Assembly: GCA_964399915.1 (NCBI GenBank)
Contig: CAYNRN010000003.1
Location: 2,064 to 66,063, forward strand
Direction: 5' to 3'
DNA: 64,000 nt
Source of the DNA: an uncultured Planctomycetales bacterium
GTDB lineage: Bacteria; Omnitrophota; Gorgyraeia; Gygaellales; Profunditerraquicolaceae
This document shows positions 3,218 to 60,010 of this stretch, piece after piece. The notes beneath the pieces were generated by a model that saw only the letters and a list, made by a program, of their open reading frames with translations, had not been told where the DNA came from and searched no databases. The stretch's first letter is position 1. Each line of letters starts with the position of its first letter. A program made the translations under genes and the position numbers.

Positions 3218-3478
3218 TCAGGCCGATTTAAGCTTTTTGCTTAAGCGGGATTTTCTGCGGCTTGCTAAGCTGGGATGGATAACTTTCTTTTTGGCGGCTT
3301 TATCCAGTTGAGAAAATACTTTATTCAGGAAAGCCTTGGCTTCATCGAGCTTTTTTTCCGAAATCAGCGCCTGGAACTTCTTTAAAGTCTTTTTAAGTTC
3401 TTTTTTGACCTTAAGGTTGCGCAGGCGTTTTTTCTTATCTTTGCGCTGCTGTTTTAGCGAAGTCTTTCGTCTAGGCAT
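3218..3478 (-). CDS. rpsT: 30S ribosomal protein S20
   Basis: 86-aa basic protein MPRRKTSLKQQRKDKKKRLRNLKVKKELKKTLKKF...ASRRKSRLSKKLKSA, a textbook S20. Confidence 0.9.
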   Translation of the reverse strand: MPRRKTSLKQQRKDKKKRLRNLKVKKELKKTLKKFQALISEKKLDEAKAFLNKVFSQLDKAAKKKVIHPSLASRRKSRLSKKLKSA

Positions 3479-3536
3479 ATCTTCTCCTTGTTTTTTTATC
3501 CGTTTCGTTTATAACATAATTAATTTGCAATGTCAA

Positions 3537-3582
3537 CCCCGTTACAAATACGATTCTTATCATAGCATAATTTGTAACGGGG
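3537..3582. repeat. Inverted repeat CCCCGTTACAAAT-N20-ATTTGTAACGGGG flanked by direct GTCAAC; copy 1, upstream of murJ
   Basis: Arms at 3537-3549 and 3570-3582 are exact reverse complements. A second copy with the identical 20-nt spacer length is at 57604-57649. Confidence 0.8.
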
Positions 3583-3595
3583 TCAACAAACAAAT

Positions 3596-5155
3596 ATGGA
3601 AAAATATTCCAATCGAAGTATAGCCAAATCTGCCGGCGTAATCGGCATAGCCACTTTCGCCAGCCGCTTACTGGGTTTTGCCCGGGATATCGTCATTGCC
3701 CGGCTTTTCGGAATCCGCATATATGCCCAGGCCTTTGTCATCGCTTTTAAGATCCCCAACCTCCTGCGCGACTTCTTAGGCGAGGGCGCTACCAACGCCG
3801 CTTTTGTTCCGGTCTTCAGCGACTACGCAGTGAAACATTCAAAAGAAGAATTCTGGCATCTGGCCAATGTCGTGCTGAACCTTCTGCTGATTGTACTTTC
3901 TTTATTGACTTTGGCAGGAATGTTGTTTTCTCCCCTGATTGTGCGCTTGATCGCTCCCGGTTTCATCGCCGATGCGGAAAAATTACAAGCCACGGTAAGG
4001 CTGACCAGGATAATCTTTCCCTATATCATGCTTATCGGTTTGGCCGCCTATTCAATGGGGATACTGAATTCGCTTAAACATTTCAGTGTCCCGGCGTTTG
4101 CTCCCTGCCTGCTGAACATCTCGATAATTATCTTCGCCAATATTTATTCGCAGGGGATAACCGGCCTTGCCTTGGGTGTTTTAGTCGGCGGATTCCTGCA
4201 GCTTGCGGTGCAGATCCCGGTTTTATACAGCAAAGGGATGCGCATCAAACTTTTTAAATCTTTCCGTCATCCGGCGGCTTTTGCCATCGGCAGATTAATG
4301 CTGCCGCGTGTTTTCAGCAGCACGATCTACCAGCTGAACAATTTCGTAGATTCTATATTCGGTTCTTTGGCTTTTATAGTCGGAGAGGGCGGTGTGGCGG
4401 TCTTATATTTCTCTTATCGGCTGATACAGTTTCCCATCGGGATATTCAGTAATGCCCTTTCTCAGGCGATGCTGCCCAGCCTCTCGGCGCAGGCAGCGCA
4501 GGACGAAAGGAAAGATTTAAAGCATACGTTTTCTTTCGGGCTGCGCGCGACTTTTTTTATGATGCTGCCGGCTTCCTTTGGTTTTATGGCATTGGCAAAA
4601 CCGATTATTTCGGTGCTTTTTCAGGGAGGCGAGTTTGATGCGGCCTCCGCAAAAGTCACTTCCAATGCCTTATTCTTTTACAGTATAGGCCTTTTTGCCT
4701 TCGGCGCCAAGAAAGTGATTCAAACGGTATTTTTCGCGCTTAAAGATACGGTTACCCCTGCCAGGGTCGCTTTTATTACCCTGATTATCAATATCGCTTT
4801 AAACGCTTGCCTGATGTTTCCCTTAAAGATTGCCGGGCTTGCTTTGGCGACTTCAGTATCGGGTATTATCGGTTTTCTGATTCTCTTTGCGGATTTAAAA
4901 AAGCGCTTGAGCCCCATTAACAGCGGAGAAATCATTGTTTCTTTCCTGCGGATCTTCTTGGCGAGTGCGGCGATGGCCCTTGTCTGTTACGCTCTGTCTT
5001 TAAGGCTTGCCCTGACCGGCAGCGTCATAAATAAAGCCCTCGGTTTAGCGGTGTTATTACTAAGCGGGGCAGCCTCGTATTTATTTTTCTGTTTTATTTT
5101 AAGGGTGGGAGAGTTAAAGGAGTTGTGCAGGTGGATAATCGCAACAAGGCGCTAA
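3596..5155 (+). CDS. murJ: Lipid II flippase MurJ (MviN)
   Basis: 519-aa polytopic protein. N-terminus SIAKSAGVIGIATFASRLLGFARDIVIARLFG is the MurJ signature. Confidence 0.9.
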   Translation: MEKYSNRSIAKSAGVIGIATFASRLLGFARDIVIARLFGIRIYAQAFVIAFKIPNLLRDFLGEGATNAAFVPVFSDYAVKHSKEEFWHLANVVLNLLLIVLSLLTLAGMLFSPLIVRLIAPGFIADAEKLQATVRLTRIIFPYIMLIGLAAYSMGILNSLKHFSVPAFAPCLLNISIIIFANIYSQGITGLALGVLVGGFLQLAVQIPVLYSKGMRIKLFKSFRHPAAFAIGRLMLPRVFSSTIYQLNNFVDSIFGSLAFIVGEGGVAVLYFSYRLIQFPIGIFSNALSQAMLPSLSAQAAQDERKDLKHTFSFGLRATFFMMLPASFGFMALAKPIISVLFQGGEFDAASAKVTSNALFFYSIGLFAFGAKKVIQTVFFALKDTVTPARVAFITLIINIALNACLMFPLKIAGLALATSVSGIIGFLILFADLKKRLSPINSGEIIVSFLRIFLASAAMALVCYALSLRLALTGSVINKALGLAVLLLSGAASYLFFCFILRVGELKELCRWIIATRR

Positions 5156-6396
5156 AAGAAAAAATCAACTCGCTTCCCGATGCCTGCGGGGTATACCTGT
5201 TTAAGGACGCAAGCGGAAAAATTATTTATGTCGGCAAGGCCAAATCCTTAAGGAAAAGGGTGCGTTCATATTTTGGCCGCCTGCTGGACGCTAAAACCCA
5301 GCTCTTAGTAGCCAAGATAGAAGATTTAGAATACCGGCTTACTTCTTCAGAGAGCCGGGCCGAGCTTTTGGAAGCTTCCCTGATCAAGGAGCATCTGCCG
5401 CATTACAACGTCAGCTTCAAAGACGATAAATCATTCCCCCTGATCAGGATTTCAGATGAAAAATTTCCTCTCCTTTCCGTGGTAAGGAATAAAAACAGGC
5501 CGGCGCACGATCGGAGCGTTTATTTCGGCCCTTATACCGACCCGCGGCTCTTGCGGCAGGCGATAAAGATGATCCGTAAGGTTTTCGGTTTCCGTTCTTG
5601 TAAGGCTTTGCCGAAGCAGCCCTGCCTGTATTACCGCCTGAAGTTGTGCCCTGCGCCCTGCGCCGGAAAAATTTCTCCCGGGCAATACAAAAGCATCATT
5701 AAACAGATCAGGATGTTTTTGGAATCCAAGTACGAAGAGTTATCTGACCAGTTACGCCGGCAGATGCATTCGGCTGCGCAGGAAAAGAGGTATGAAGACG
5801 CTGCTTCTTTACGCGACCGCATAGAAGCGCTGGCGATGTTTAGAGGGGAAGAGGCTTTTGACAGCAGGGAAGAATTAAACATCCTTAAAAGAGCGCTGCA
5901 ATTAAAGAAGCTGCCTGAAAGGATCGAGGCATTTGATATCTCCAACATCAGCGGCAAGGAAGCCTGCGGTTCAATGGTCGCCTTTTATAGGGGCAAGCCG
6001 GATAAAAATAATTACCGCCGCTTTAGAATTAAGGGTGTTGAGGGCATTGATGATTACGCGATGCTTCGCGAGGTAGTGCGCAGGCGTTATCGCAGGGTCA
6101 TAGAAGAGGGGCTGCCCTTTCCCGACCTGGTATTAATCGACGGGGGGAAAGCACACCTTGCTGCCGCCTCAGGCCAGATCAGTACGCTGGGGATTGATTT
6201 GGAGATTGCCAGTATCGCCAAAGAAAGAGAGAATATTTATACCACGGGCCGGCGCGCGCCGCTGAATCTTCAAAAGTATCCGCAGGCTTTAAATTTAATC
6301 CGCAGGGTCCGCGATGAGGCGCATCGGTTTGCGATTAATTATCATCATCTGCTACGCAAAAAAGCAATATTTAAAAATGAGGGACGTAACTCGTAA
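5125..6396 (+). CDS. uvrC: Excinuclease ABC subunit C (UvrC) lacking the C-terminal (HhH)2 domain
   Basis: GIY-YIG motif (GVYLFKDASGKIIYVGKAKSLRKRVRSYF), UVR domain (YEDAASLRDRIEAL) and the RNase H-like endonuclease domain are present. The protein ends at 423 aa with no HhH tail. GTG start at 5125, or alternatively 5131. Confidence 0.75.
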   Translation: MQVDNRNKALKEKINSLPDACGVYLFKDASGKIIYVGKAKSLRKRVRSYFGRLLDAKTQLLVAKIEDLEYRLTSSESRAELLEASLIKEHLPHYNVSFKDDKSFPLIRISDEKFPLLSVVRNKNRPAHDRSVYFGPYTDPRLLRQAIKMIRKVFGFRSCKALPKQPCLYYRLKLCPAPCAGKISPGQYKSIIKQIRMFLESKYEELSDQLRRQMHSAAQEKRYEDAASLRDRIEALAMFRGEEAFDSREELNILKRALQLKKLPERIEAFDISNISGKEACGSMVAFYRGKPDKNNYRRFRIKGVEGIDDYAMLREVVRRRYRRVIEEGLPFPDLVLIDGGKAHLAAASGQISTLGIDLEIASIAKERENIYTTGRRAPLNLQKYPQALNLIRRVRDEAHRFAINYHHLLRKKAIFKNEGRNS

Positions 6397-6485
6397 GCTC
6401 GTAACTAGTAACTCGTAATCAGGATAGTCCTTTTAAAACCTAACAAATTTCTAAAAATTACTAGTTACGAGTTACTAATTTACTA
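6384..6485. repeat. Inverted array of GTAACT hexamer repeats (about 5 forward copies, AT-rich spacer, about 4 reverse AGTTAC copies)
   Basis: cGTAACTcGTAAGctcGTAACTaGTAACTcGTAATc ... ttACTAGTTACgAGTTACtaatttACTAGTTACtaaac. Overlaps the uvrC stop codon and ends 10 nt before the next start. Confidence 0.75.
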
Positions 6486-6495
6486 GTTACTAAAC

Positions 6496-6795
6496 ATGAC
6501 TTCTTTCGCCGTAAAAGTCTATAAGGTAGTGCTAAAAATACCGCTGGGCCAGACGCGCACCTATAAATGGGTTGCAAAGAGGGCCGGTAGCCCTGGCGCA
6601 AGCCGCGCAGTCGGGCAGATCATGAAAAAGAACCCCTATCCTTTATTAATCCCCTGCCATAGGGTTGTTGCCTCTGGCGGAAAAATCGGAGGTTATAACC
6701 GGGGGGTCAAGGTTAAAAAAATGCTCCTGGATATTGAGAAACAGATAAAATCATGCCTGGAAAGCAGCGCTTGTGGTATAATTAAGAAAAAGTAA
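6496..6795 (+). CDS. Methylated-DNA--protein-cysteine methyltransferase (MGMT/Ogt) C-terminal domain protein
   Basis: Active-site motif PCHRVV (LLIPCHRVVASGGKIGGY). 99 aa, matching stand-alone MGMT DNA-binding/alkyl-acceptor domain proteins. Confidence 0.75.
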   Translation: MTSFAVKVYKVVLKIPLGQTRTYKWVAKRAGSPGASRAVGQIMKKNPYPLLIPCHRVVASGGKIGGYNRGVKVKKMLLDIEKQIKSCLESSACGIIKKK

Positions 6796-7908: not shown

Positions 7909-9010
7909 ATGCTGGATAATATTAAGTCGGAACTCTCGTCGATCCAGGCGCGGCTTGAGCAACTAAGAGGTTATCTTTGACGTCGATAAAACCCTAAAAG
8001 AAATTGAAGCGCTCACCGCTCAGATGTCTAATCCGCGTTTTTGGGATAATCAGGAATATTCCGCGCAAGTCGTTAAAAAGCTTAAATTTTTAAAGAGCAG
8101 GGTCGAGCCGTGGCAGGCAGCCTGGGATAAATCCCGGGAGCTTGCGGAATTATCAGGCATACTCAGCGAAGGCGAAACAGCTTTAACGCAGGAAGTGGCA
8201 GGCGGCTTAGGGGAACTTTCGCAACGCATTGAAAAACTGGAATTCAATGCCTTACTTTCCGGCGAATTTGATAAAAACAGCGCTATCTTAAGCATTAATT
8301 CCGGCGCCGGAGGCACTGAGTCCTGCGATTGGGCAGCGATGCTTTTGAGAATGTATTCCCGCTTCTGCGAAAAGCGTAATTGGAGCGTAAAAACTCTGGA
8401 TATCCTGGAGGGCGAAGAAGCGGGGATTAAGAATGTCACCCTGCTGATCGAAGGCCATTTTGCATACGGATATCTTAAGGCAGAGCGGGGAGTGCACCGC
8501 CTGGTGCGCATTTCTCCCTTTGATGCCAATAAGCGCCGCCATACCTCTTTTGCTTCAGTTGACGTAATACCCGAAATAGAGGAAGACGACGGTATCAAGA
8601 TCGAGGAGAAAGACCTGCGCATAGATGTCTACCGTTCAAAAGGGGCCGGCGGACAGAGCGTTAATACTACGGATTCGGCGGTAAGGATTACGCATATACC
8701 CAGCGGCCTGGTTGCCCAGTGCCAGAACGAGCGCTCGCAGCATCAGAATAAGCAGACCGCGCTTAAAATCCTTAAAGCGCGCCTTTATGAGCTGGAAAGA
8801 GAAAAAAAAGAGCAGGAACTGCTTAAACATTACGGTTCAGATAAGAAGAAGATAGAATGGGGCAGCCAGATCCGTTCTTATGTGATGCATCCGTATAATA
8901 TGGTCAAAGACCACCGTACGGCTCAGGAAACAGGGGATGTGGGAAAGGTGATGGACGGCGGACTCGATGAGTTTATAGAGGCGTATTTGAAATTGAAAGC
9001 TAACAGCTGA
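7909..9010 (+). CDS. prfB: Peptide chain release factor 2, with programmed +1 ribosomal frameshift at 7978
   Basis: ATG 7909 with RBS GAGGAGG. Frame 0 encodes [23 protein letters not shown] and then in-frame UGA at 7978-7980. The +1 frame continues [24 protein letters not shown]... (the ORF track's 8024-9010 ORF) and carries the RF2-family SPF motif region. Combined length is 366 aa, typical for RF2. Confidence 0.9.
7965..7981 (+). promoter_or_regulatory. prfB autoregulatory +1 frameshift site (SD-like AAGAGG, 4-nt spacer, CUU UGA C)
   Basis: The sequence aAGAGGttatCTTTGAC is near-identical to the E. coli prfB recoding site (AGGGGGUAUCUUUGAC). Confidence 0.85.
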
Positions 9011-14804: not shown

Positions 14805-14889
14805 AAGGTTATTATATAACTAAATATAATTAGGTCAAGGCTAAGGATGCTTGATTCGGCAATCCTAGTGTGATAGAATACGCTTAATT

Positions 14890-16299: not shown

Positions 16300-16307
16300 A
16301 TGAAGGC

Positions 16308-16407
16308 GAGACTTACGGAGCGAAGCGAACGTAAGTCTCTGCCTGAATTTATCCCGCACCCAGATAAGGAATGAGCCTGAATCATTGTTGTATTCTGGGT
16401 GCGGGAT
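16308..16407. repeat. Two consecutive perfect stem-loops (10-bp stem/12-nt loop at 16308-16339; 14-bp stem/29-nt loop at 16351-16407)
   Basis: GAGACTTACG/CGTAAGTCTC and ATCCCGCACCCAGA/TCTGGGTGCGGGAT. Neither is followed by a U-tract. Confidence 0.75.
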
Positions 16408-16451
16408 TCAATTCGCAGGCGCTTGAATAGACAACTGAAACGATGAACGCT

Positions 16452-16484
16452 ATAATACTTGACATTGAAAATGTCAAGTATTAT
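16452..16484. promoter_or_regulatory. Perfect 33-bp palindrome (15-bp arms, 3-nt spacer) overlapping TTGACA and TATTAT promoter-like hexamers; candidate operator
   Basis: ATAATACTTGACATT-GAA-AATGTCAAGTATTAT, 24 bp upstream of the 16508 start. Confidence 0.7.
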
Positions 16485-16507
16485 CTGCTCATTGAAGGAG
16501 GCAAAAG

Positions 16508-20764: not shown

Positions 20765-21325
20765 GTGGCAAAATGCTTCCCAATAGACAGGAGGTGTCCG
20801 ATGGGGCACGCTAAAAGAATATTTTTGGCGCTGGGTATCACAGCGCTGGTTTTATTAGTTTCGCAGTCCGCTTTTTGCCAGGAGGCAGGCCCCGCGCAGC
20901 AGGCGGTTGGCCAGGACCAGACGCAGTGGGTCTGGGGGGAAGTGAGCGCCGTAGACACTGATAAAGGCGAACTCTCCGTAACTTACCTTGATTATGACAC
21001 TGATCAGGAGAAAAAAATAACTATCTCAACAGACGAGAAGACCGTTTATGAGAATATCAAAGCTTTGTCTGAGATAGAACAGCAGAACGCGGTAAGTATA
21101 GACTATGTGGTTTCCGGGGAAAAGAATATTGCCAAGAATATCAGTGTGGACAAAACCGACGAGATAGAGCCTCCGGAGACAGTTGCTTCTGAAGAGTTGC
21201 CGCAGGATGCGCCGGAAACAGTCTCTTCTGAAGAGTTGCCGCAGGATGCGCCGGCTGAGATTGCCAAAGAGGAAGTAGAAGGGGCAGCGGCAGGGCCGGC
21301 AGTAGAAGGGCAGAAAAAAGAATAA
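20765..21325 (+). CDS. Secreted acidic protein with a tandem ETV(A/S)SEELPQDAP repeat; unknown function
   Basis: Signal peptide (start more likely at the internal M of MGHAKRIFLALGITALVLLVSQSAFC). C-terminal 15-aa repeat x2. Very acidic tail. Confidence 0.45.
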   Translation: MAKCFPIDRRCPMGHAKRIFLALGITALVLLVSQSAFCQEAGPAQQAVGQDQTQWVWGEVSAVDTDKGELSVTYLDYDTDQEKKITISTDEKTVYENIKALSEIEQQNAVSIDYVVSGEKNIAKNISVDKTDEIEPPETVASEELPQDAPETVSSEELPQDAPAEIAKEEVEGAAAGPAVEGQKKE

Positions 21326-21354
21326 TCTGCGTTAGATTTAGCCAGCGGTTTTTA

Positions 21355-21387
21355 CGGCAGGGGCAAAACCCCTGCCGTTCTTTTTCC
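21355..21387 (+). terminator. Rho-independent terminator (CGGCAGGGG-caaaa-CCCCTGCCG followed by TTCTTTTTCC)
   Basis: Perfect 9-bp GC-rich stem with a 5-nt loop and a U-tract after the 20765 gene. A TTGAAG-17-TATAAT promoter follows. Confidence 0.8.
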
Positions 21388-21438
21388 GGAGGTTTGGCTT
21401 GAAGCGGCTAAGCTTTATTGTTATAATATCCCCATAAG

Positions 21439-24988: not shown

Positions 24989-25957
24989 ATGAAAGCTGTA
25001 GCTTTGATTTCAGGCGGGCTGGATAGTCTATTGGCCGCAAAGCTTATACAAGGGCAGGGGGTAGAAGTATTAGCCCTGCATTTTCAGATGCCCTTTTGTG
25101 CAAGCAATGTTAAGGAAGCCGTAGCTGCCCTGGGGCTGTCCTTGAAGGAGGGAAGTATTGACGAGGAATTCATCGGCCTTATTCTTAAGCCTAAGCACGG
25201 CAGAGGTTCGCATATGAACCCTTGTATTGACTGCAAAATCCTGATGTTGCGCCGGGCAAAGGAGATGATGGCTTCTCTGGGGGCAGATTTTATTATCACC
25301 GGAGAGGTCCTGGGGCAACGTCCGATGTCGCAGCACAGGCAGAGCCTTGAGGTTATTGAGAGAGAATCAGGCCTGGAAGGCTTATTGCTACGGCCTTTAT
25401 CCGCGCGGCTGCTTGCGGAAACTCTCCCCGAAAAAAAAGGGTGGGTGAAGAGGGAGGAATTGCTCGCTTTTAACGGCAGGGCCCGTAAGCCACAGATTGA
25501 CCTTGCCGATAAATTAGGGATTCGTAATTACCGGCAGCCGGCAGGAGGCTGCCTGCTTACCGACGCAGCTTTTTCAGGCAGGATAAAAGATCTGATAAAA
25601 TATAACGAGCTTACACTGGATAACATTGAGCTTCTTAAAATCGGCAGGCATTTCAGGTTAAGCCAAACAGCCAAGCTGGTAGTAGGGAGGAATGAAATTG
25701 AGAATGGCCGCCTGATCCGCCTGAAGCAGAAAGATGACCTGATATTCATGCCTGAGATATTGGCAGGGCCTACGGCTTTAGGCAGAGGGACTTTCGATAA
25801 TGATTTGATAGAATTATCCTGCTCTATAGTCAGCCGCTACTGCGATTTAAACGGGGAAGCGGCAGCGGATATAATCTGTGAGAACGTATCCTGCGGCCAA
25901 AAAGTTTATAGCATTGCTGCGGCCAGAGAAGAACAGCTTGCTGCTTTAAGGAGATGA
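24989..25957 (+). CDS. PP-loop superfamily ATPase, ThiI/MnmA-like sulfurtransferase family (exact orthology uncertain)
   Basis: PP-loop ALISGGLDSLLAA. ThiI-like TGEVLGQRPMSQ and a CIDCK cysteine pair. Adjacent to thiM/thiE. Confidence 0.45.
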   Translation: MKAVALISGGLDSLLAAKLIQGQGVEVLALHFQMPFCASNVKEAVAALGLSLKEGSIDEEFIGLILKPKHGRGSHMNPCIDCKILMLRRAKEMMASLGADFIITGEVLGQRPMSQHRQSLEVIERESGLEGLLLRPLSARLLAETLPEKKGWVKREELLAFNGRARKPQIDLADKLGIRNYRQPAGGCLLTDAAFSGRIKDLIKYNELTLDNIELLKIGRHFRLSQTAKLVVGRNEIENGRLIRLKQKDDLIFMPEILAGPTALGRGTFDNDLIELSCSIVSRYCDLNGEAAADIICENVSCGQKVYSIAAAREEQLAALRR

Positions 25958-26006
25958 ACCCCGTTAGAAATTTTCATAACGGGAAATCGGAGGCGTTTCT
26001 AACGGG

Positions 26007-27020
26007 ATGAAGGAAGCCCTTTTTTATGAGAAACTGGATAGTCAGAGGGTGCGTTGTTTTCTCTGCGCCCACCGCTGCCACATAGAGCCGGATAAATTCG
26101 GTTTCTGCGGGGTGAGGCAGAATGTCAACGGTAAACTCTTTACTTATGCTTACGGAAAAGTCATTGCCGCTAATATCGATCCGATTGAAAAGAAACCGCT
26201 CTACCATTTTCTCCCCGGCTCAAAGAGTTTTTCCATAGCTACTATCGGCTGTAACTTCCGCTGCGGATTCTGTCAGAACTGGGAGATATCGCAGGCGTCT
26301 TTCAGGGCGCTGGATGTTTCGGGCGGCGGCCAGCTTTCTCCGGTTGATATAGTAAAACAGGCAACCGAAAATAAATGTGCCAGCATCTCTTATACCTATA
26401 CCGAACCGACGATATTCTTTGAATACGCGTATGACACCGCAAAAATAGCTAAAGAGAAAGGCCTGTTCAACAATTTCGTGACTAACGGATTCATGACAAA
26501 AGAGGCGCTGGAGATGATCAGGCCTTATCTGGATGCGGCTAACGTCGACCTTAAGTTCTTTAAAGAGAGTTCTTATCAGGAGGTTTGTTCGGGTAGACTG
26601 CAGCCGGTGCTTGACACTATACGCCTGATGAAGCGATATGGCATCTGGATTGAAGTAACTACCCTGGTTGTGCCCGGCAGTAATGACTCGCCCGAAGAAC
26701 TAAGCGCGATTGCCCGGTTTATCGCCGAGGTAGATAAAGGTATCCCCTGGCATATCTCAAGGTTTTATCCGGATTATAATTTTTCCGATAGGCAGGCTAC
26801 CCCATTGGGTAAATTAAAAGAAGCCGAGTCGCTCGGCCGCAAAGCCGGGCTAAACTACGTATACATAGGCAATGTCATAGGCGAAGGCAATGATACATAT
26901 TGCCCCAATTGTAAAAAATTATTGATTAGAAGAGAAGGCTTTTCGCTTTTAGAGTATAATATATCAGGAAACAAATGCCCCTATTGTAAGGTAGCTATAC
27001 CCGGAAGGTTTCATGGTTAA
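26007..27020 (+). CDS. Radical SAM enzyme, AmmeMemoRadiSam-system type (PFL-activase-like)
   Basis: CNFRCGFCQNW radical SAM cluster motif characteristic of this subfamily. C-terminal CPNCKK...CPYCK zinc-ribbon-like pairs. Confidence 0.6.
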   Translation: MKEALFYEKLDSQRVRCFLCAHRCHIEPDKFGFCGVRQNVNGKLFTYAYGKVIAANIDPIEKKPLYHFLPGSKSFSIATIGCNFRCGFCQNWEISQASFRALDVSGGGQLSPVDIVKQATENKCASISYTYTEPTIFFEYAYDTAKIAKEKGLFNNFVTNGFMTKEALEMIRPYLDAANVDLKFFKESSYQEVCSGRLQPVLDTIRLMKRYGIWIEVTTLVVPGSNDSPEELSAIARFIAEVDKGIPWHISRFYPDYNFSDRQATPLGKLKEAESLGRKAGLNYVYIGNVIGEGNDTYCPNCKKLLIRREGFSLLEYNISGNKCPYCKVAIPGRFHG

Positions 27021-51706: not shown

Positions 51707-52798
51707 ATGAACAAACGCGCAGTCGTTGCGATGAGCGGAGGGGTAGATTCTTCAGTTGCCGCGGCGATTTTAAAAAGCAAGGGTTTTGAAGTAATCGGGA
51801 TGACAATGTGTTTTGGATTAAGCGAACAGGCGCGCCGTAAACCTTCCTGCTGCGGTATCAGGGGCATTGAGGATGCCCGGCGTGTTGCCGATAAGCTGGG
51901 CATCAGGCATTATGCCGTGAATATGCACAGGCACCTGGAAAAATTCGTGATCAGCGATTTTTGCCATGAATATCTTTCCGGGAGAACGCCGAATCCTTGC
52001 GTACGCTGCAATCAGTTCTTGAAATTCTCAATTCTTCTGGATAAGGCGCGCGCCCTGGGAGCGGATTTTCTTGCCACGGGGCATTACGCCCGTATAGCAA
52101 AATCCCGGGCCGCAAACCGCAAACCGCAAACTTATTTACTCAAAAAAGCCAGGGATAAAAGCAAAGACCAGTCGTATTTTTTATACCGCTTAACCCAGAA
52201 ACAGCTAAAACAGGTACTATTCCCGCTGGGAAATTATACAAAACCTCAGGTCCGCCTCTTGGCAGGGAAGTTTGGCCTGCCGGTAGCTGATAAAAAAGCA
52301 AGCCAGGAGATATGTTTTTTGGGGGACGATGATTACCGTAATTTTTTGCGTAAGCAGATGGGAAGGCAAATCTATCCCGGCGAAATCTTAGACAGCGCAG
52401 GAAAACCGCTCGGCTGCCATAAAGGGATCGCTTATTACACCATCGGGCAGCGCCAGGGTTTAGGCATAGCTTTCGGAAAACCGGCATACATCAGCCGTAT
52501 TGACGCTGCTAATAACCGTATTACTATCGGCCCGAAAGAGGAGGTGGTCAGCTCTGATTTTCTGGTTAGAGAAGTTAATTTTGTCTCTGAGCCGATAAAA
52601 AAGAAAATTGTGCTTAATGTTAAAATACGCTATAATCATAAAGAAGCGCCTGCAGAAGTTTCATCTGCCAGGGGCGTACTAAAAGCGCATTTTAAAATTC
52701 CGCAGTTTGCGATTACCCCGGGCCAATCAGCGGTATTCTATAAATCCGACAGGTTAATCGGCGGAGGGATAATAGAGAAGGTGTTAAACCATGATTAA
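51707..52798 (+). CDS. mnmA: tRNA-specific 2-thiouridylase MnmA
   Basis: PP-loop VAMSGGVDSSVAA and catalytic-Cys contexts (PNPCVRCN, EICFL). 363 aa. Confidence 0.85.
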   Translation: MNKRAVVAMSGGVDSSVAAAILKSKGFEVIGMTMCFGLSEQARRKPSCCGIRGIEDARRVADKLGIRHYAVNMHRHLEKFVISDFCHEYLSGRTPNPCVRCNQFLKFSILLDKARALGADFLATGHYARIAKSRAANRKPQTYLLKKARDKSKDQSYFLYRLTQKQLKQVLFPLGNYTKPQVRLLAGKFGLPVADKKASQEICFLGDDDYRNFLRKQMGRQIYPGEILDSAGKPLGCHKGIAYYTIGQRQGLGIAFGKPAYISRIDAANNRITIGPKEEVVSSDFLVREVNFVSEPIKKKIVLNVKIRYNHKEAPAEVSSARGVLKAHFKIPQFAITPGQSAVFYKSDRLIGGGIIEKVLNHD

Positions 52799-56555: not shown

Positions 56556-57602
56556 ATGCTCAAAACTTATTATTGCGAATCCGCCCAACTCAAGACTTTC
56601 TATAACCTCTTAATAAAGAGTTTCCGCGTATTTTCGCCCGCCCCCAAAGAGTCCGTAAAAGGAGAAAAAGATTATTATTACCGCTTGGCCTCAGGCGAAG
56701 AGGAGCTTGTCTTTAACCCCTACAGGGTAGTTGAGCCGCTGAAATCGTTTTTTACCGCCCCCTTAGAAAAAGTAACGGATTATTTTACCCCCCAGGAAGA
56801 TGCCTCCCGGATAAATGAGAGAACAATCATCTTCGGGGTAAAGAGCTGCGATCTCCACGGCCATAAAATCCAGGATTATGTTTTTCTTGAAGGCGTGGAG
56901 GTAGATTCTTTATACGCCTTACGCAGGGAAAACACAATCCTCATCTCTTCCGATTGCACAGATTATAAGCAAGTCTGCCATTGCCTTGCCTGGTCGGTAA
57001 TGCCTTATCCCACGGAGGGATTTGATCTAAACCTAAGCCCCCTCAACGACGGATTCCTGGTTGATCTGGGTAGCTCCAAAGGGGAAGAGCTAATTGAGAA
57101 ATATAAAGAATTCTTTATGCTTGCTAAAGACAGCCAGATAGCCGCGCGCAAGGTCAAGCGACAGAATCTGGTAGAATGCCTCAAGAGGCACCTTTTGCCT
57201 CAAGGCCTGGTGGCGCAGGATAAAGCCCAGGAGGTCGTACGTTCGGGCTTTAGTTCCGAGACATGGAAAAAGTTTATGCTTACCTGCGTTGAGTGCGGAG
57301 GGTGTAACCTGATTTGCGACACCTGCCATTGTTTTCTGCTTGGCGACGCAAAGGCAGGCAATATAAACAAGAAGCTCAGGGTTTGGGATTCGTGTCTTTA
57401 CGCTAATTATGCCCGGGTTGCAGGAGGCGCAAACCCATTAAAAACCAGGGCGCAGCGTTTAAGGAACCGCTTTATCAAGAAGTTTGATTTTTTCGTGGAT
57501 AATATGGGTATTCCTGCCTGTTGCGGATGCGGCAGGTGTATCGAAGTCTGCCCGGGCAAGATCGATATCAGGGAAGTTTTGAAGGATTTAGCCAAGAAAT
57601 GA
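56556..57602 (+). CDS. Fe-S subunit resembling anaerobic sulfite reductase AsrA / sulfhydrogenase beta (HydB)
   Basis: Cys clusters CVECGGCNLICDTCHCF and CCGCGRCIEVCP. 348 aa, matching AsrA/HydB size. Confidence 0.6.
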   Translation: MLKTYYCESAQLKTFYNLLIKSFRVFSPAPKESVKGEKDYYYRLASGEEELVFNPYRVVEPLKSFFTAPLEKVTDYFTPQEDASRINERTIIFGVKSCDLHGHKIQDYVFLEGVEVDSLYALRRENTILISSDCTDYKQVCHCLAWSVMPYPTEGFDLNLSPLNDGFLVDLGSSKGEELIEKYKEFFMLAKDSQIAARKVKRQNLVECLKRHLLPQGLVAQDKAQEVVRSGFSSETWKKFMLTCVECGGCNLICDTCHCFLLGDAKAGNINKKLRVWDSCLYANYARVAGGANPLKTRAQRLRNRFIKKFDFFVDNMGIPACCGCGRCIEVCPGKIDIREVLKDLAKK

Positions 57603-57603
57603 A

Positions 57604-57649
57604 CCCTGTTACAAATATGTAGCGGGGGAAGGAAGGATTTGTAACGGGG
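57604..57649. repeat. Inverted repeat CCCTGTTACAAAT-N20-ATTTGTAACGGGG, copy 2 (1 mismatch between arms), ending at the start codon of the next gene
   Basis: Same arm sequence and exact 20-nt spacer as 3537-3582. Confidence 0.8.
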
Positions 57650-58464
57650 TGAAAAATATCTACCGGCCGATAGAGGGGACAATCGAAGAGATCATTGTCG
57701 AATCGCCGACAATAAAGACCTTCGTGATCAGGCCGAAGGAGGGTTTTTCCTTCAGGACCGGCCAGTTCGTAGAACTTACGCTCCCCGGCTTAGGCGAAGC
57801 GCCGTTTACCCCTTCGTCCGATCCCAATATCAAGGATAAGATTGATGTGACAATCATGAAGGCCGGGCATGTCACCTCGCTATTACACGCTGCCTCAAAG
57901 AATATCTCAGTAGGAATCCGCGGGCCCTACGGTAAGGGCTATCCTCTGGAGAGTTTCCAGGGTAAGGACATCTTAATCGTAGGCGGCGGAGTGGGGTTAG
58001 CGCCCCTGCGCTCTCTATTATTCAGCCTGTTTGCTACTATCGACCTTTATAATAAGGTAGTGCTGCGTTATGGTTCACGTTCGCCTGCGGATATAATCTA
58101 TAAAGGGGCTATCCCGCAATGGGGCAAAATGAAGAAAGTGGATGTGGTTACCTCGGTTGATGTGGGTTCGCCCGAATGGAAGGGGAACGTCGGTTTGGTC
58201 ACCACGATTTTAAACGACCTGCCGGTAGACCTAAAAAAAGCGGTAGCGATAGTCTGCGGCCCGCCGATTATGATGAAATTCGTGACCTTGAAGTTACTGG
58301 ATGTAGGTTTTAAGCCGAAGGATATATATCTTTCTATGGAGAAGAGTATGTCCTGCGGATTAGGTAAGTGCGGCCACTGCCGTATTGGCAAATATTACAT
58401 CTGTAAAGACGGCCCGGTGTTTACTTACGAGCAGTTGAAGGATGTGCACGATATCTGGGATTGA
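57649..58464 (+). CDS. FAD/NAD(P)H-binding [2Fe-2S] subunit resembling AsrB / sulfhydrogenase gamma (HydG) / PyrK
   Basis: FNR-like N-terminus (TGQFVEL), NAD-binding ILIVGGGVGLAPL, C-terminal CGLGKCGHCRIGKYYICKDGPVF 2Fe-2S motif. GTG start. Confidence 0.65.
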   Translation: MKNIYRPIEGTIEEIIVESPTIKTFVIRPKEGFSFRTGQFVELTLPGLGEAPFTPSSDPNIKDKIDVTIMKAGHVTSLLHAASKNISVGIRGPYGKGYPLESFQGKDILIVGGGVGLAPLRSLLFSLFATIDLYNKVVLRYGSRSPADIIYKGAIPQWGKMKKVDVVTSVDVGSPEWKGNVGLVTTILNDLPVDLKKAVAIVCGPPIMMKFVTLKLLDVGFKPKDIYLSMEKSMSCGLGKCGHCRIGKYYICKDGPVFTYEQLKDVHDIWD

Positions 58465-58958
58465 TGAAAAGACTATTCGTTGACCTCGACGTCTGTAACA
58501 GTTGTAAAGAATGCGTGGTACTTTGCGATTATTTTTACCATCCGCAGAACAACGGCATTGCTTCGCTTCGGGAATATGCCACCTTTGCGACGATTTGCCG
58601 CCATTGCGACGAGGCGCCCTGCGTCAACGCCTGCTATCATAATGCCCTGGAGCGAGCCGCAGACGGACACCTTAAGAGGTATAAGATGCGTTGCACCAGC
58701 TGTAAGGCCTGCAGCCTGGCTTGTCCGTTCGGTATAATCTTCCAAGATTTCATACCTTATCTTGACTCGCGCTGCGATTATTGCATAGGTTCAAAAGGCA
58801 GGCTTCCTAAATGCGTAACCAGCTGTACGCACAAAGCGGTTGAAATAAGGGAAGTAGAAGAGAGCTTAGAGAATAATATCTTTTTTGTGGGAGAACATCT
58901 GGCAGTACATTCGCGTAAGTGGTTGCGCGAAGATCTACAGCTGCCCAGAAAGAAGTAG
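58461..58958 (+). CDS. Poly-[4Fe-4S] ferredoxin (EchF/HycB/NuoI-like)
   Basis: Motifs CNSCKECVVLC, CRHCDEAPCVNAC, CTSCKACSLACP plus an extra CDYC...C..C cluster. Confidence 0.65.
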   Translation: MMKRLFVDLDVCNSCKECVVLCDYFYHPQNNGIASLREYATFATICRHCDEAPCVNACYHNALERAADGHLKRYKMRCTSCKACSLACPFGIIFQDFIPYLDSRCDYCIGSKGRLPKCVTSCTHKAVEIREVEESLENNIFFVGEHLAVHSRKWLREDLQLPRKK

Positions 58959-59023
58959 CCAGGGATGAGTAGTGGGTATTGAGGGCGGCCCTAACCCCTC
59001 ACTACTGGCTACTCACTACTAAC

Positions 59024-59938
59024 ATGTTGAAATCATTTTTTTATTATTTTATATTTCCCGGTTTCCTCTTTGCCGCCTCTGTCGGCTTAATCGCCGGCTG
59101 GGTTGACAGAAAGGTCACCGCGCGGCTGCAGTGGCGTAAAGGCCCGCCATGGCATCAGAATTTTACTGATATTGTCAAGTTAATAGGCAAGGAAGTAATC
59201 GTGCCTGCCAACGGCAGGTGGGTATTTTTACTTGCCCCTTTTATCGGGTTACTGGCTGCTTCTCTTGTGGCTGCGCTAGTCGGGGTCTCTATAATTCATC
59301 CTCAGCAGAGTTTTGTCGGAGACTTGATCGTAGTGCTCTACCTTTTAACCATTCCGGCGATATCCATGATTATTGCCGCCTCGAGCTGCGGTAATCCGCT
59401 TGCTTCCGTAGGCGCTTCCCGGGAGATAAAGCTAGTCTTAGGATATGAATTACCTTTTATAATTTCTATAGTGGCGATGGCCATTAAATCATCCGGCGCC
59501 ATCCAGCTGGGTTCAATTCTTAATATCCAGGCTGCTTATGGTTCAAACATAGCCTCCTGGTCGGGATTCTTCGCCTTTATAGTTGTCATTTTCTGTATTC
59601 AGGCGAAACTTGGGTTTGTCCCCTTTGACGCTTCCGAGGCGGAGCAGGAGATTGTCGGAGGCGTTTTGATAGACTATTCCGGAGTACTGCTTGCGTTATT
59701 CAAGCTTACCAAGGCAGTGCTTCTATATACGCTGCCGCTCTTTATGATAATACTTTTCATGGGTAAAGATTTGAGCCTGTTGTTTCTGGCGCTTAAATAT
59801 ACGGGTATACTGGTAATCATTATCCTGATAAAAAATACCAATCCCCGATTGCGCATTGATCAGGCAATGAGGTTTTTCTGGGGGCCGGTAACGCTATTAG
59901 CGATAGCAGCATTAATACTGGCGTCAATTGGACTATAA
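59024..59938 (+). CDS. Membrane subunit of group-4 hydrogenase (NuoH/EchB/HycD family)
   Basis: NuoH-like pattern (RKVTARLQWRKGPP). 8 TM helices. Start taken at ATG 59024 (MLKSFFYY...); the ORF track extends to 58979 through an intergenic palindrome. Confidence 0.7.
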   Translation: MLKSFFYYFIFPGFLFAASVGLIAGWVDRKVTARLQWRKGPPWHQNFTDIVKLIGKEVIVPANGRWVFLLAPFIGLLAASLVAALVGVSIIHPQQSFVGDLIVVLYLLTIPAISMIIAASSCGNPLASVGASREIKLVLGYELPFIISIVAMAIKSSGAIQLGSILNIQAAYGSNIASWSGFFAFIVVIFCIQAKLGFVPFDASEAEQEIVGGVLIDYSGVLLALFKLTKAVLLYTLPLFMIILFMGKDLSLLFLALKYTGILVIIILIKNTNPRLRIDQAMRFFWGPVTLLAIAALILASIGL

Positions 59939-60010
59939 TATATAACCGCAGGTCAAGGTTAAGGTTGGGGTCGAGAAATAAAACCTAGACCTTGACCTAG
60001 GCCTTAGAAT

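Follow-up and report, generated by a model that had tools for sequence, protein, structure and literature searches.

The question raised by this locus is what has come to lie between two genes which, in related organisms, touch or overlap. The locus is in a 64,000-nucleotide (nt) stretch of contig CAYNRN010000003.1 (assembly GCA_964399915.1, positions 2,064 to 66,063 of the forward strand), which is hereafter called the window and is numbered from its first letter. It comes from an uncultured bacterium that the closest relatives of its UvrC protein place in Candidatus Omnitrophota. Between uvrC and a gene for an MGMT-domain protein, a tandem array of the heptamer NGTAACT is followed by a second array of the same unit in the opposite orientation. 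As judged from the sequence, the identity and origin of this element can be stated with high confidence: it is an inverted pair of heptanucleotide simple sequence repeats (SSRs), an instance of a kind that has been described but not explained. A role in translation, which depends on a predicted fold, is held with moderate-to-low confidence. The reading as a whole, namely that the inserted SSR pair is co-transcribed with the two genes and that its stem-loop keeps translation of the MGMT-domain gene coupled to that of uvrC, is put forward tentatively, at somewhat less than an even chance.

The forward array occupies 6385-6420 on the plus strand and consists of five units: CGTAACT, CGTAAGCT, CGTAACT, AGTAACT, and CGTAATC. 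Tandem Repeats Finder (TRF) reports 4.7 copies of CGTAACT with a period of 7 at 6385-6418. The original prediction, made from the letters of the window, had described about five forward GTAACT units overlapping the uvrC stop codon, and this is borne out: the TAA stop codon (6394-6396) is within unit 2. The array is followed by an AT-rich spacer (6420-6456, 27% GC), which is the predicted hairpin loop. Its base composition had been recognized correctly, whereas its length is 37 nt and not 40. The spacer matched no family in the family search and contained no promoter-like site in the consensus scan. The inverted array at 6456-6492, also given on the plus strand, reads ATTACT AGTTACG AGTTACT AATTTACT AGTTACT; TRF reports 4.9 copies with a period of 7 at 6458-6492. 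In other words, there are five reverse units rather than "about four", and the array ends at 6490-6492, so that 3-5 nt rather than 10 nt separate it from the ATG at 6496. The end coordinate of 6485 given previously was about 7 nt short.

Read as its reverse complement, the inverted array is AGTAACT, AGTAAATT, AGTAACT, CGTAACT, and AGTAATT. The unit lengths are 7-8-7-7-7 in both arms, and the single 8-nt unit is the second from the outside in each. Because of this shared layout, including the one odd unit, the two arms look like copies of each other as whole arrays, rather than separate expansions. An inverted-repeat search gave arms of 34 nt (6386-6419 and 6457-6490) that are 82% complementary and separated by 37 nt. 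When the arms are paired in register, a mismatch occurs every 7 nt; a register shift of one unit gives a perfect inner pairing of 14 nt (6398-6411 with 6458-6471). The 105 nt of the element contain 6 of the 23 GTAACT/AGTTAC hexamers of the window, while about 15 are expected across the whole 64 kb in shuffled sequence. The GC content of the inserted stretch (6381-6495, approximately 115 nt) is 32%, compared with 47% for the window. The sequence of the element recurs in independent metagenome assemblies (JGI, ENA, and Logan) at 99.98-100% identity, which excludes an assembly artefact.

The two flanking genes were identified correctly beforehand, as confirmed by their Pfam domains. The uvrC gene (5125-6396, plus strand) encodes 423 residues with GIY-YIG, UVR, and RNase H domains and has no C-terminal helix-hairpin-helix (HhH) domain. 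The MGMT-domain gene (6496-6795, plus strand) encodes 99 residues matching PF01035 (E=2e-31), in which the active-site cysteine of the PCHRV motif is kept. The insert separates the two genes by 99 nt. In the closest relative found (L203; UvrC 75% identical), the TAA of uvrC abuts the ATG of the MGMT gene. The two genes overlap at an ATGA sequence in L204, L205-207, L208, L006, L008, and L015, and are 3 nt apart in L211. A relic of this overlap is present in the window as well: an ATGA at 6377-6380 on the plus strand, now out of frame for uvrC, aligns with the ATGA overlaps of L204, L205, L208, and L008 and with the abutting TAA|ATG of L203, and it is repeated by the ATGA of the MGMT-domain start at 6496-6499. 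The insert provides uvrC with its final five to six codons (NEGRNS) and with its stop. The UvrC tail after the YHH motif is accordingly unusual: it is 12-14 residues long in 117 of 120 homologues, and 18 residues only in this protein. Since the relatives have abutting or overlapping genes and the UvrC tail is uniquely extended, the stretch of approximately 115 nt at 6381-6495 is, from this comparison, a recent and lineage-specific insertion into a former overlap.

The gene pair itself is characteristic of the clade. UvrC of these Omnitrophota (L003-L008, L015, and L203-L211) has about 413-416 residues and ends after the RNase H domain, without a C-terminal HhH domain; more distant relatives have 50-60 additional residues. 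The short UvrC gene is almost always followed by a gene for a stand-alone MGMT C-terminal domain, usually through an ATGA overlap. This adjacency suggests a functional link between recognition of alkyl lesions and excision repair.

The same junction is occupied by other repeats in some relatives. In L005, it contains an inverted hairpin of 115 nt built of four to five units of approximately 10 nt (GTTNCATAAG and its complement). In L209, three copies of AGCTCAT are opposite five copies of ATGAGCY; these are again inverted heptamers. In L003, L004, and L007, five direct Shine-Dalgarno-like AAGGYY hexamers reach the ATG. Taken together, the element is absent or is replaced by unrelated repeats in at least 15 orthologous junctions. 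In a neighbour-joining tree of UvrC, the window sequence pairs with the insert-free L203, L005 and L209 are among the overlap-type relatives, and L003, L004, and L007 form a separate clade. This placement implies that inverted arrays were born independently at least two to three times at this one junction, in addition to one direct array. For the repeat units, derivation from the local ATGAC start region is plausible in L209 (ATGAGCY) and L005 (units containing TTATG), and is weakly indicated at the present locus. The three hairpin-type inserts (this locus, L005, and L209) all reach from the stop codon to 5-10 nt before the start codon and leave no Shine-Dalgarno sequence between hairpin and ATG; the sole insert that is not a hairpin is an array of Shine-Dalgarno-like units. 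Runs of direct AAGGYY hexamers, such as AGGTCAAGGCTAAGG, are found just 5' of start codons at 14832-14846 of the window, at 1792-1825 of L003, and at the L004 and L007 junctions; they look like tandem Shine-Dalgarno-like units.

The comparison of relatives also bears on the possibility that the periodic half-sites are a multi-site DNA array for a regulator, either an Ada-like protein or a ribbon-helix-helix protein that reads heptads in the manner of the omega repressor. Omega-type heptad operators have a seven-base periodicity and occur in direct and inverted orientation, and the 7-bp periodicity of the present arrays in both orientations resembles them. However, operator sites of this kind would be expected to overlap with a promoter and to be kept at orthologous loci, whereas the present arrays are missing from the closest and from most relatives with unchanged gene order, which rules out a conserved regulatory site, and the repeats at the same place in other lineages have unrelated units. 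The consensus scan found no promoter-like site in or beside the arrays, and no further GTAACT cluster was present in the 75 kb of genome available, that is, the window and a further 11 kb. Control by an Ada-like protein, which the original prediction had raised as speculation, is also disfavoured by the MGMT-domain protein itself: according to Pfam, it consists of the alkyltransferase C-terminal domain only, with neither the Ada N-terminal domain nor a helix-turn-helix domain. A regulator array is therefore highly improbable. Phase variation was considered and rejected. All three frames are closed by stop codons within the forward array (6385-6420), and the whole of the second array is 5' of the ATG; this means that a change in copy number cannot switch either reading frame.

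A third idea, that of a small fold-back repeat, was right with respect to the shape of the element. It leads to a different origin, in which a miniature fold-back element (MITE) whose terminal inverted repeats consist of heptamers was inserted at ATGA with a 4-bp target duplication. The ATGA is indeed present at both 6377-6380 and 6496-6499, and the insert of L005 is likewise flanked by ATGAG and ATGAC. Any insert that leaves both genes intact must, however, duplicate the ATGA. The same genome does hold a true family of small palindromes (CCCGTTACAAAT...ATTTGTAACGGG, three copies) with flanking direct repeats of 5-6 nt, and the element resembles both MITEs and the repetitive extragenic palindromic sequences (REPs) and bacterial interspersed mosaic elements (BIMEs) in being a small intergenic palindrome just 3' of a stop codon within an operon, with a short flanking direct repeat (ATGA). 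REPs and MITEs are conserved families of many copies, whereas the element has internally repetitive arms and is a single copy in the available DNA: the search for clustered GTAACT/AGTTAC repeats over the 75 kb gave no second cluster, and the relatives lack the insert. REPs and BIMEs are imperfect palindromes of 20-40 nt in high copy number; here the arms of 35 nt are built of repeats and no family match was found, although genes for REP-associated tyrosine transposases (RAYTs) were not searched for.

Similar arrays are found outside this genome. A metagenome-wide scan for GTAACTNGTAACTNGTAA, in which the source contigs were not among the matches listed and which gives no copy numbers, showed inverted GTAACT arrays in at least 13 unrelated contigs among the 120 metagenome matches listed, from organisms of widely differing GC content; eight viral contigs have them as well. 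Such a distribution might be taken as a sign of mobility. But the arrays in the metagenome contigs have only the heptamer in common: their spacers and flanks are unrelated, and target duplications are not seen. In the viral contigs, GTAACT arrays are merely 1.4-3.4 times as frequent as those of three permuted control heptamers. Inverted partners were found for 8 of 101 GTAACT arrays compared with 2 of 134 control arrays, and this excess is explained at least partly by the unit itself, since AGTAACT is one base away from its own reverse complement. GTAACT as a shared mobile element was rejected on these grounds. Together with the unrelated units in the same-site inserts of relatives, they make the mobile MITE very unlikely. 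One inverted AGTTAC/GTAACT heptamer pair, at 1-330 of a termite-gut metagenome contig (L201), is directly 5' of a gene. By eye, its product has the look of the four-helix-bundle '23S rRNA intervening sequence' family, to which we assume it belongs.

A census of tandem repeats places the element in a wider class. Seven is the modal tandem period (TRF) in the 1.4 Mb of fetched loci, and in loci chosen by UvrC homology alone it accounts for 18 of the 55 arrays with at least three copies. The 1.4 Mb contain 58 pairs of inverted arrays of the same unit, nearly all with period 7 and with varied units (AATTACG, CAAGTAG, GGTACAA, CGGGGCG, and AGTCGTT, among others). Among 274 arrays, inverted partners outnumbered direct ones by about two to one (53 vs 23). 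Where both neighbouring genes could be called, 23 of 26 inverted pairs were between co-directional genes and none was in a divergent region; in 12 of 17 co-directional cases the array is within 17 nt of the upstream stop codon, and as a rule it starts only a few nt away from that codon. The window also has perfect tandem heptamers inside coding sequences (GGTTATC x3.6 at 2031-2055, in a signal-peptide-like N-terminus, and CCGCAAA x3.1 at 52110-52131) and a 39-nt tandem repeat (x2.1) inside another open reading frame (21173-21254).

Heptanucleotides are the most abundant long SSRs in prokaryotes, and a proposed cause is slippage of the polymerase, with a footprint of 7 nt (Mrazek 2007, as quoted in PMC4679880); heptameric short tandemly repeated repetitive (STRR) sequences of cyanobacteria belong here as well (Mazel et al. 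1990, as cited in PMC4692102). The element agrees with these SSRs in its 7-nt unit and mostly non-coding position, and period 7 is modal in our own census as well. The surveys, as far as they are quoted in those two papers, describe direct arrays; inverted pairing and recurrent birth at one junction are outside those descriptions. A close likeness is to Xanthomonas campestris and X. axonopodis, where 70-75 pairs of GGGAATC arrays in each genome are convergent (inverted) and could form stem-loops. The type of array is conserved across species, the length is variable, and the pairs are without an established function (Rehm et al. 2015, PMC4692102). As in those pairs, the present locus has at least three tandem copies of a 7-nt unit, with two nearby intergenic arrays of the same unit on opposite strands and the potential to form a stem-loop or cruciform. 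The Xanthomonas unit is, on the other hand, G-rich with G-quadruplex potential and present at about 186 loci per genome, whereas the unit here is the AT-rich NGTAACT at one locus in 75 kb, and the other hairpins of the genome are built of different units. The TAACTGA arrays of marine Beggiatoaceae stop about 1 nt short of starts that lack a Shine-Dalgarno sequence, and some overlap the end of the upstream open reading frame (MacGregor 2015, PMC4679880); a translational role was proposed without a test (PMC4679880). The element resembles these arrays, which also occur in cyanobacteria and Bacteroidetes, in the TAACT core, the nearby Shine-Dalgarno-less start, and the stop codons that the forward unit provides in all frames. 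It differs in that TAACTGA arrays are direct, with one fixed unit at about 170 loci and one inverted case reported (PMC4679880), whereas the array next to the MGMT start runs in reverse (AGTTACN) and has a forward array as its partner. What seems to go beyond the known literature is that such hairpins have arisen more than once, and independently, at one and the same ATGA junction.

As for origin, replication slippage may have built a short NGTAACT array inside the ATGA overlap, and a template switch may have duplicated this array in inverted orientation. This route is proposed because the arms have the same unit-by-unit layout and because only the central base separates AGTAACT from its reverse complement, AGTTACT.

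The element is predicted to fold. The description as a long imperfect hairpin holds: the arms are complementary, and the RNA fold of the element has an energy of -27.6 kcal/mol (z = -3.15 against dinucleotide shuffles). The intergenic stretch alone folds with z = -4.75, and the fold of the single-stranded DNA has an energy of -15.6 kcal/mol. The original prediction gave this hairpin the role of a bidirectional terminator or an attenuator. The z value of about -3 on both strands and a TCATTTTTAAA run after the hairpin on the minus strand would be in line with such a device. An intrinsic terminator has a GC-rich stem, a loop of 3-8 nt, and a T-run; the element instead has an AU-rich stem and a 37-nt loop, with TAAACATG after the stem on the sense strand, where there is no T-run. 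The terminator consensus scan gave no match in the element, and the candidate was rejected. Furthermore, the window is compact with almost all genes on the plus strand, and no gene converges on the element. The canonical form, a GC stem with a T-run, is used elsewhere in the window instead (21354-21390), and relatives keep the uvrC-MGMT adjacency as a translationally coupled overlap. It is thus barely credible that the element terminates transcription.

If transcription continues, the element would be part of a uvrC-MGMT co-transcript, and its stem-loop would bring the uvrC stop codon, which is in the lower 5' arm, near to the AUG of the MGMT-domain gene at 6496. The start signals of this gene are consistent with such an arrangement. 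There is no Shine-Dalgarno sequence within 25 nt upstream of the MGMT start, and its anti-Shine-Dalgarno energy of +0.8 kcal/mol is the weakest of the 65 genes of the window (median -5.9). At the 5' foot of the hairpin, and still within uvrC, there is a Shine-Dalgarno-like GAGGG (6379-6383, plus strand); its duplex with the anti-Shine-Dalgarno sequence is calculated at -6.5 kcal/mol, and it is the putative ribosome-binding element. In the predicted fold, the foot of the stem brings GAGGG to about 7 nt (2 + 5) from the AUG, and the stop codon (6394-6396) is in the lower stem. Translation of the MGMT-domain gene may stay coupled to that of uvrC in this way, either by termination-reinitiation or by a hairpin-bridged ribosome-binding site. 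The ancestral gene pair is considered to have been translationally coupled, because the genes formerly overlapped, and coupling by termination-reinitiation is known at ATGA overlaps. Hairpin-bridged ribosome-binding sites are known from genes 38 and 25 of phage T4. The likeness to the T4 sites, as far as the model goes, is that GAGGG and AUG flank a stem-loop and would be approximately 7 nt apart once it is folded, here in place of an ancestral ATGA overlap. Unlike the T4 examples, the stem-loop is far larger, approximately 105 nt, and GAGGG is within the uvrC coding sequence. Some support for the role comes from four more stop-to-start hairpins in the window, with z values of -3.1 to -4.4. 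Two of these are built of short tandem units (58954-59020 and 59950-60001; z = -4.2 and -4.4), namely CTCACTA heptamers, and AAGGTY hexamers with their complement. They precede the Shine-Dalgarno-less starts at 59024 and 60011, and are identical in an independent assembly (L429).

Several observations weigh against a translational role. Hairpin formation in the RNA is itself a prediction of the folding model, and its relevance is a supposition. The antisense strand folds at -31.5 kcal/mol compared with -27.6 for the sense strand, so that the G-U signature expected of RNA-level selection on the sense strand is not seen. When a ribosome was placed on the uvrC stop codon in a partition-function model, the accessibility of the start region changed from 0.49 to 0.51, which is no gain, because the repetitive arms re-pair in another register. 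The bridged Shine-Dalgarno geometry is clear solely at this locus, and not at the hairpins at 58954 and 59950, and the hairpin of L012 is followed by an ordinary Shine-Dalgarno sequence. Copies of the locus are 99.98-100% identical without insertions or deletions, and are too close for covariation or changes in copy number to be seen. Rfam models gave no match in the window at gathering thresholds, and at permissive thresholds only sub-threshold matches to generic hairpin models of miRNA precursors. The weak start has a simple explanation: loss of the Shine-Dalgarno sequence is automatic when DNA is inserted into the overlap, and hence it is no independent evidence of function. About 18% of the genes in the window lack a Shine-Dalgarno sequence to the same degree, and 18-50% lack one overall.

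These points lead to the main rival, in which the SSR and inverted-duplication origin is the same and the hairpin is a neutral or selfish by-product with no role. The insert would persist since the uvrC stop codon and the MGMT start codon remain, and the MGMT-domain gene would be translated by a Shine-Dalgarno-independent route, as the share of window genes lacking that signal would allow. It is consistent with this alternative that the insert is recent and missing from the closest relative, that neither a strand bias in folding nor an effect on accessibility was found, and that heptamer arrays of arbitrary sequence are widespread, with no function established for the published cases (PMC4692102, PMC4679880). 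What the alternative accounts for less well is the pattern at the junction: three independent hairpins span the distance from stop to start, and the only non-hairpin insert is Shine-Dalgarno-like, which suggests a filter of tolerance. The twofold excess of inverted over direct partners among heptamer arrays (53 vs 23 of 274) also argues against it. An element with no role is thus rather unlikely, though to be taken seriously.

A role in the fate of the mRNA should also be mentioned. The hairpin might protect the 3' end of the uvrC message from 3' exonucleases or be cleaved by RNase III, and the levels of the two messages would thereby be uncoupled, as REP elements do in enterobacterial operons. 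The position of arrays of this class, within 17 nt of the upstream stop codon in 12 of 17 co-directional cases, is typical of stabilizers of the REP type, and such a long duplex, almost without breaks, would be a suitable substrate for RNase III. On the other hand, the stop codon is within the stem, so that terminating ribosomes would melt the stem base, and the stem is AU-rich with in-register mismatches every 7 nt. A stabilizer or processing site is quite unlikely on this balance. The preferred reading is still the stem-loop that keeps the two genes coupled.

This coupling could be more general. Inverted SSR hairpins might have served repeatedly in evolution to patch gene overlaps that had been split: slippage would insert DNA into an ATGA overlap, and the survivors would be either Shine-Dalgarno-like arrays or inserts that fold into stem-loops, in which the terminating ribosome or an upstream Shine-Dalgarno sequence is kept beside the downstream AUG. 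We regard this generalization as unlikely, if attractive.

The palindromic family mentioned above has three copies in the window (3531-3588, 25955-26010, and 57599-57652) with unrelated loops. Its consensus is CCC[C/T]GTTA[C/G]AAAT, a loop, and [A/G]TTT[G/C]TAACGGG. The flanking direct repeats of 5-6 nt (GTCAAC/GTCAAC, ATGAA/ATGAA, and ATGAA/GTGAA) resemble the target duplications of tiny MITEs. Two copies split ATGA-type junctions, and the loops of these two have GGAGG or GGAAGGAAGG in their 3' portion; the stop-to-start hairpins at 25958-26006 and 57603-57648 belong to this family, and their z values are within the range of -3.1 to -4.4 given above. The family was absent from all other fetched Omnitrophota loci, and the 11 kb of further genome contained neither an extra GTAACT array nor an extra copy of the CCCGTTAC hairpin. 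The hairpin at 3531-3588 is in the divergent region between rpsT and murJ. The rpsT gene, for ribosomal protein S20, is on the minus strand at 3218-3478 (complement of the start codon at 3476-3478); because of its presence there, the 378-nt gap before murJ is mostly gene.

Two other features are worth recording. The prfB gene, for release factor RF2, is at 7909-9010; its start is at 7909 and not at 8024 as in the mechanical list of open reading frames. It has the classical site of programmed +1 frameshifting, CTT TGA C, at 7975, preceded by AGAGG, and the site is conserved in L203, L204, and L209-L211. The intergenic block at 16300-16507 is strongly structured, with a folding free energy of -91 kcal/mol and z = -8. 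Its first hairpin, GAGACTTACGGAGCGAAGCGAACGTAAGTCTC, and the GAAYTTATCCCG motif that follows are found again in other Omnitrophota (L209 5413-5600, L210 5321-5500, and L204 7893-8044), where their genomic positions differ; one such place is between pilT and prfB. Rfam gave no match for the block at 16300-16507. A conserved repeat element and a non-coding RNA are both candidate readings of it.

Among the long simple repeats of prokaryotes, heptamers are the most common, and neither the reason for the 7-nt length nor their role is explained. The present locus brings the phylum Omnitrophota into the record of these repeats. It also provides a natural comparison, in which a single conserved junction carries an ATGA overlap, a direct Shine-Dalgarno-like repeat, or one of three independently arisen inverted hairpins with unrelated units. 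This comparison points to repeated local birth of hairpins rather than to the spread of a mobile sequence, and suggests that inserts are constrained by the need for the downstream gene to stay translatable. For annotation, it means that heptamer arrays of this type should not be taken for terminators or operator sites. If hairpins of this kind do act as patches for split overlaps, they would be a bacterial counterpart of termination-dependent ribosome shunting, and the inverted heptamer pairs of many bacteria, so far unexplained, would have a concrete function.

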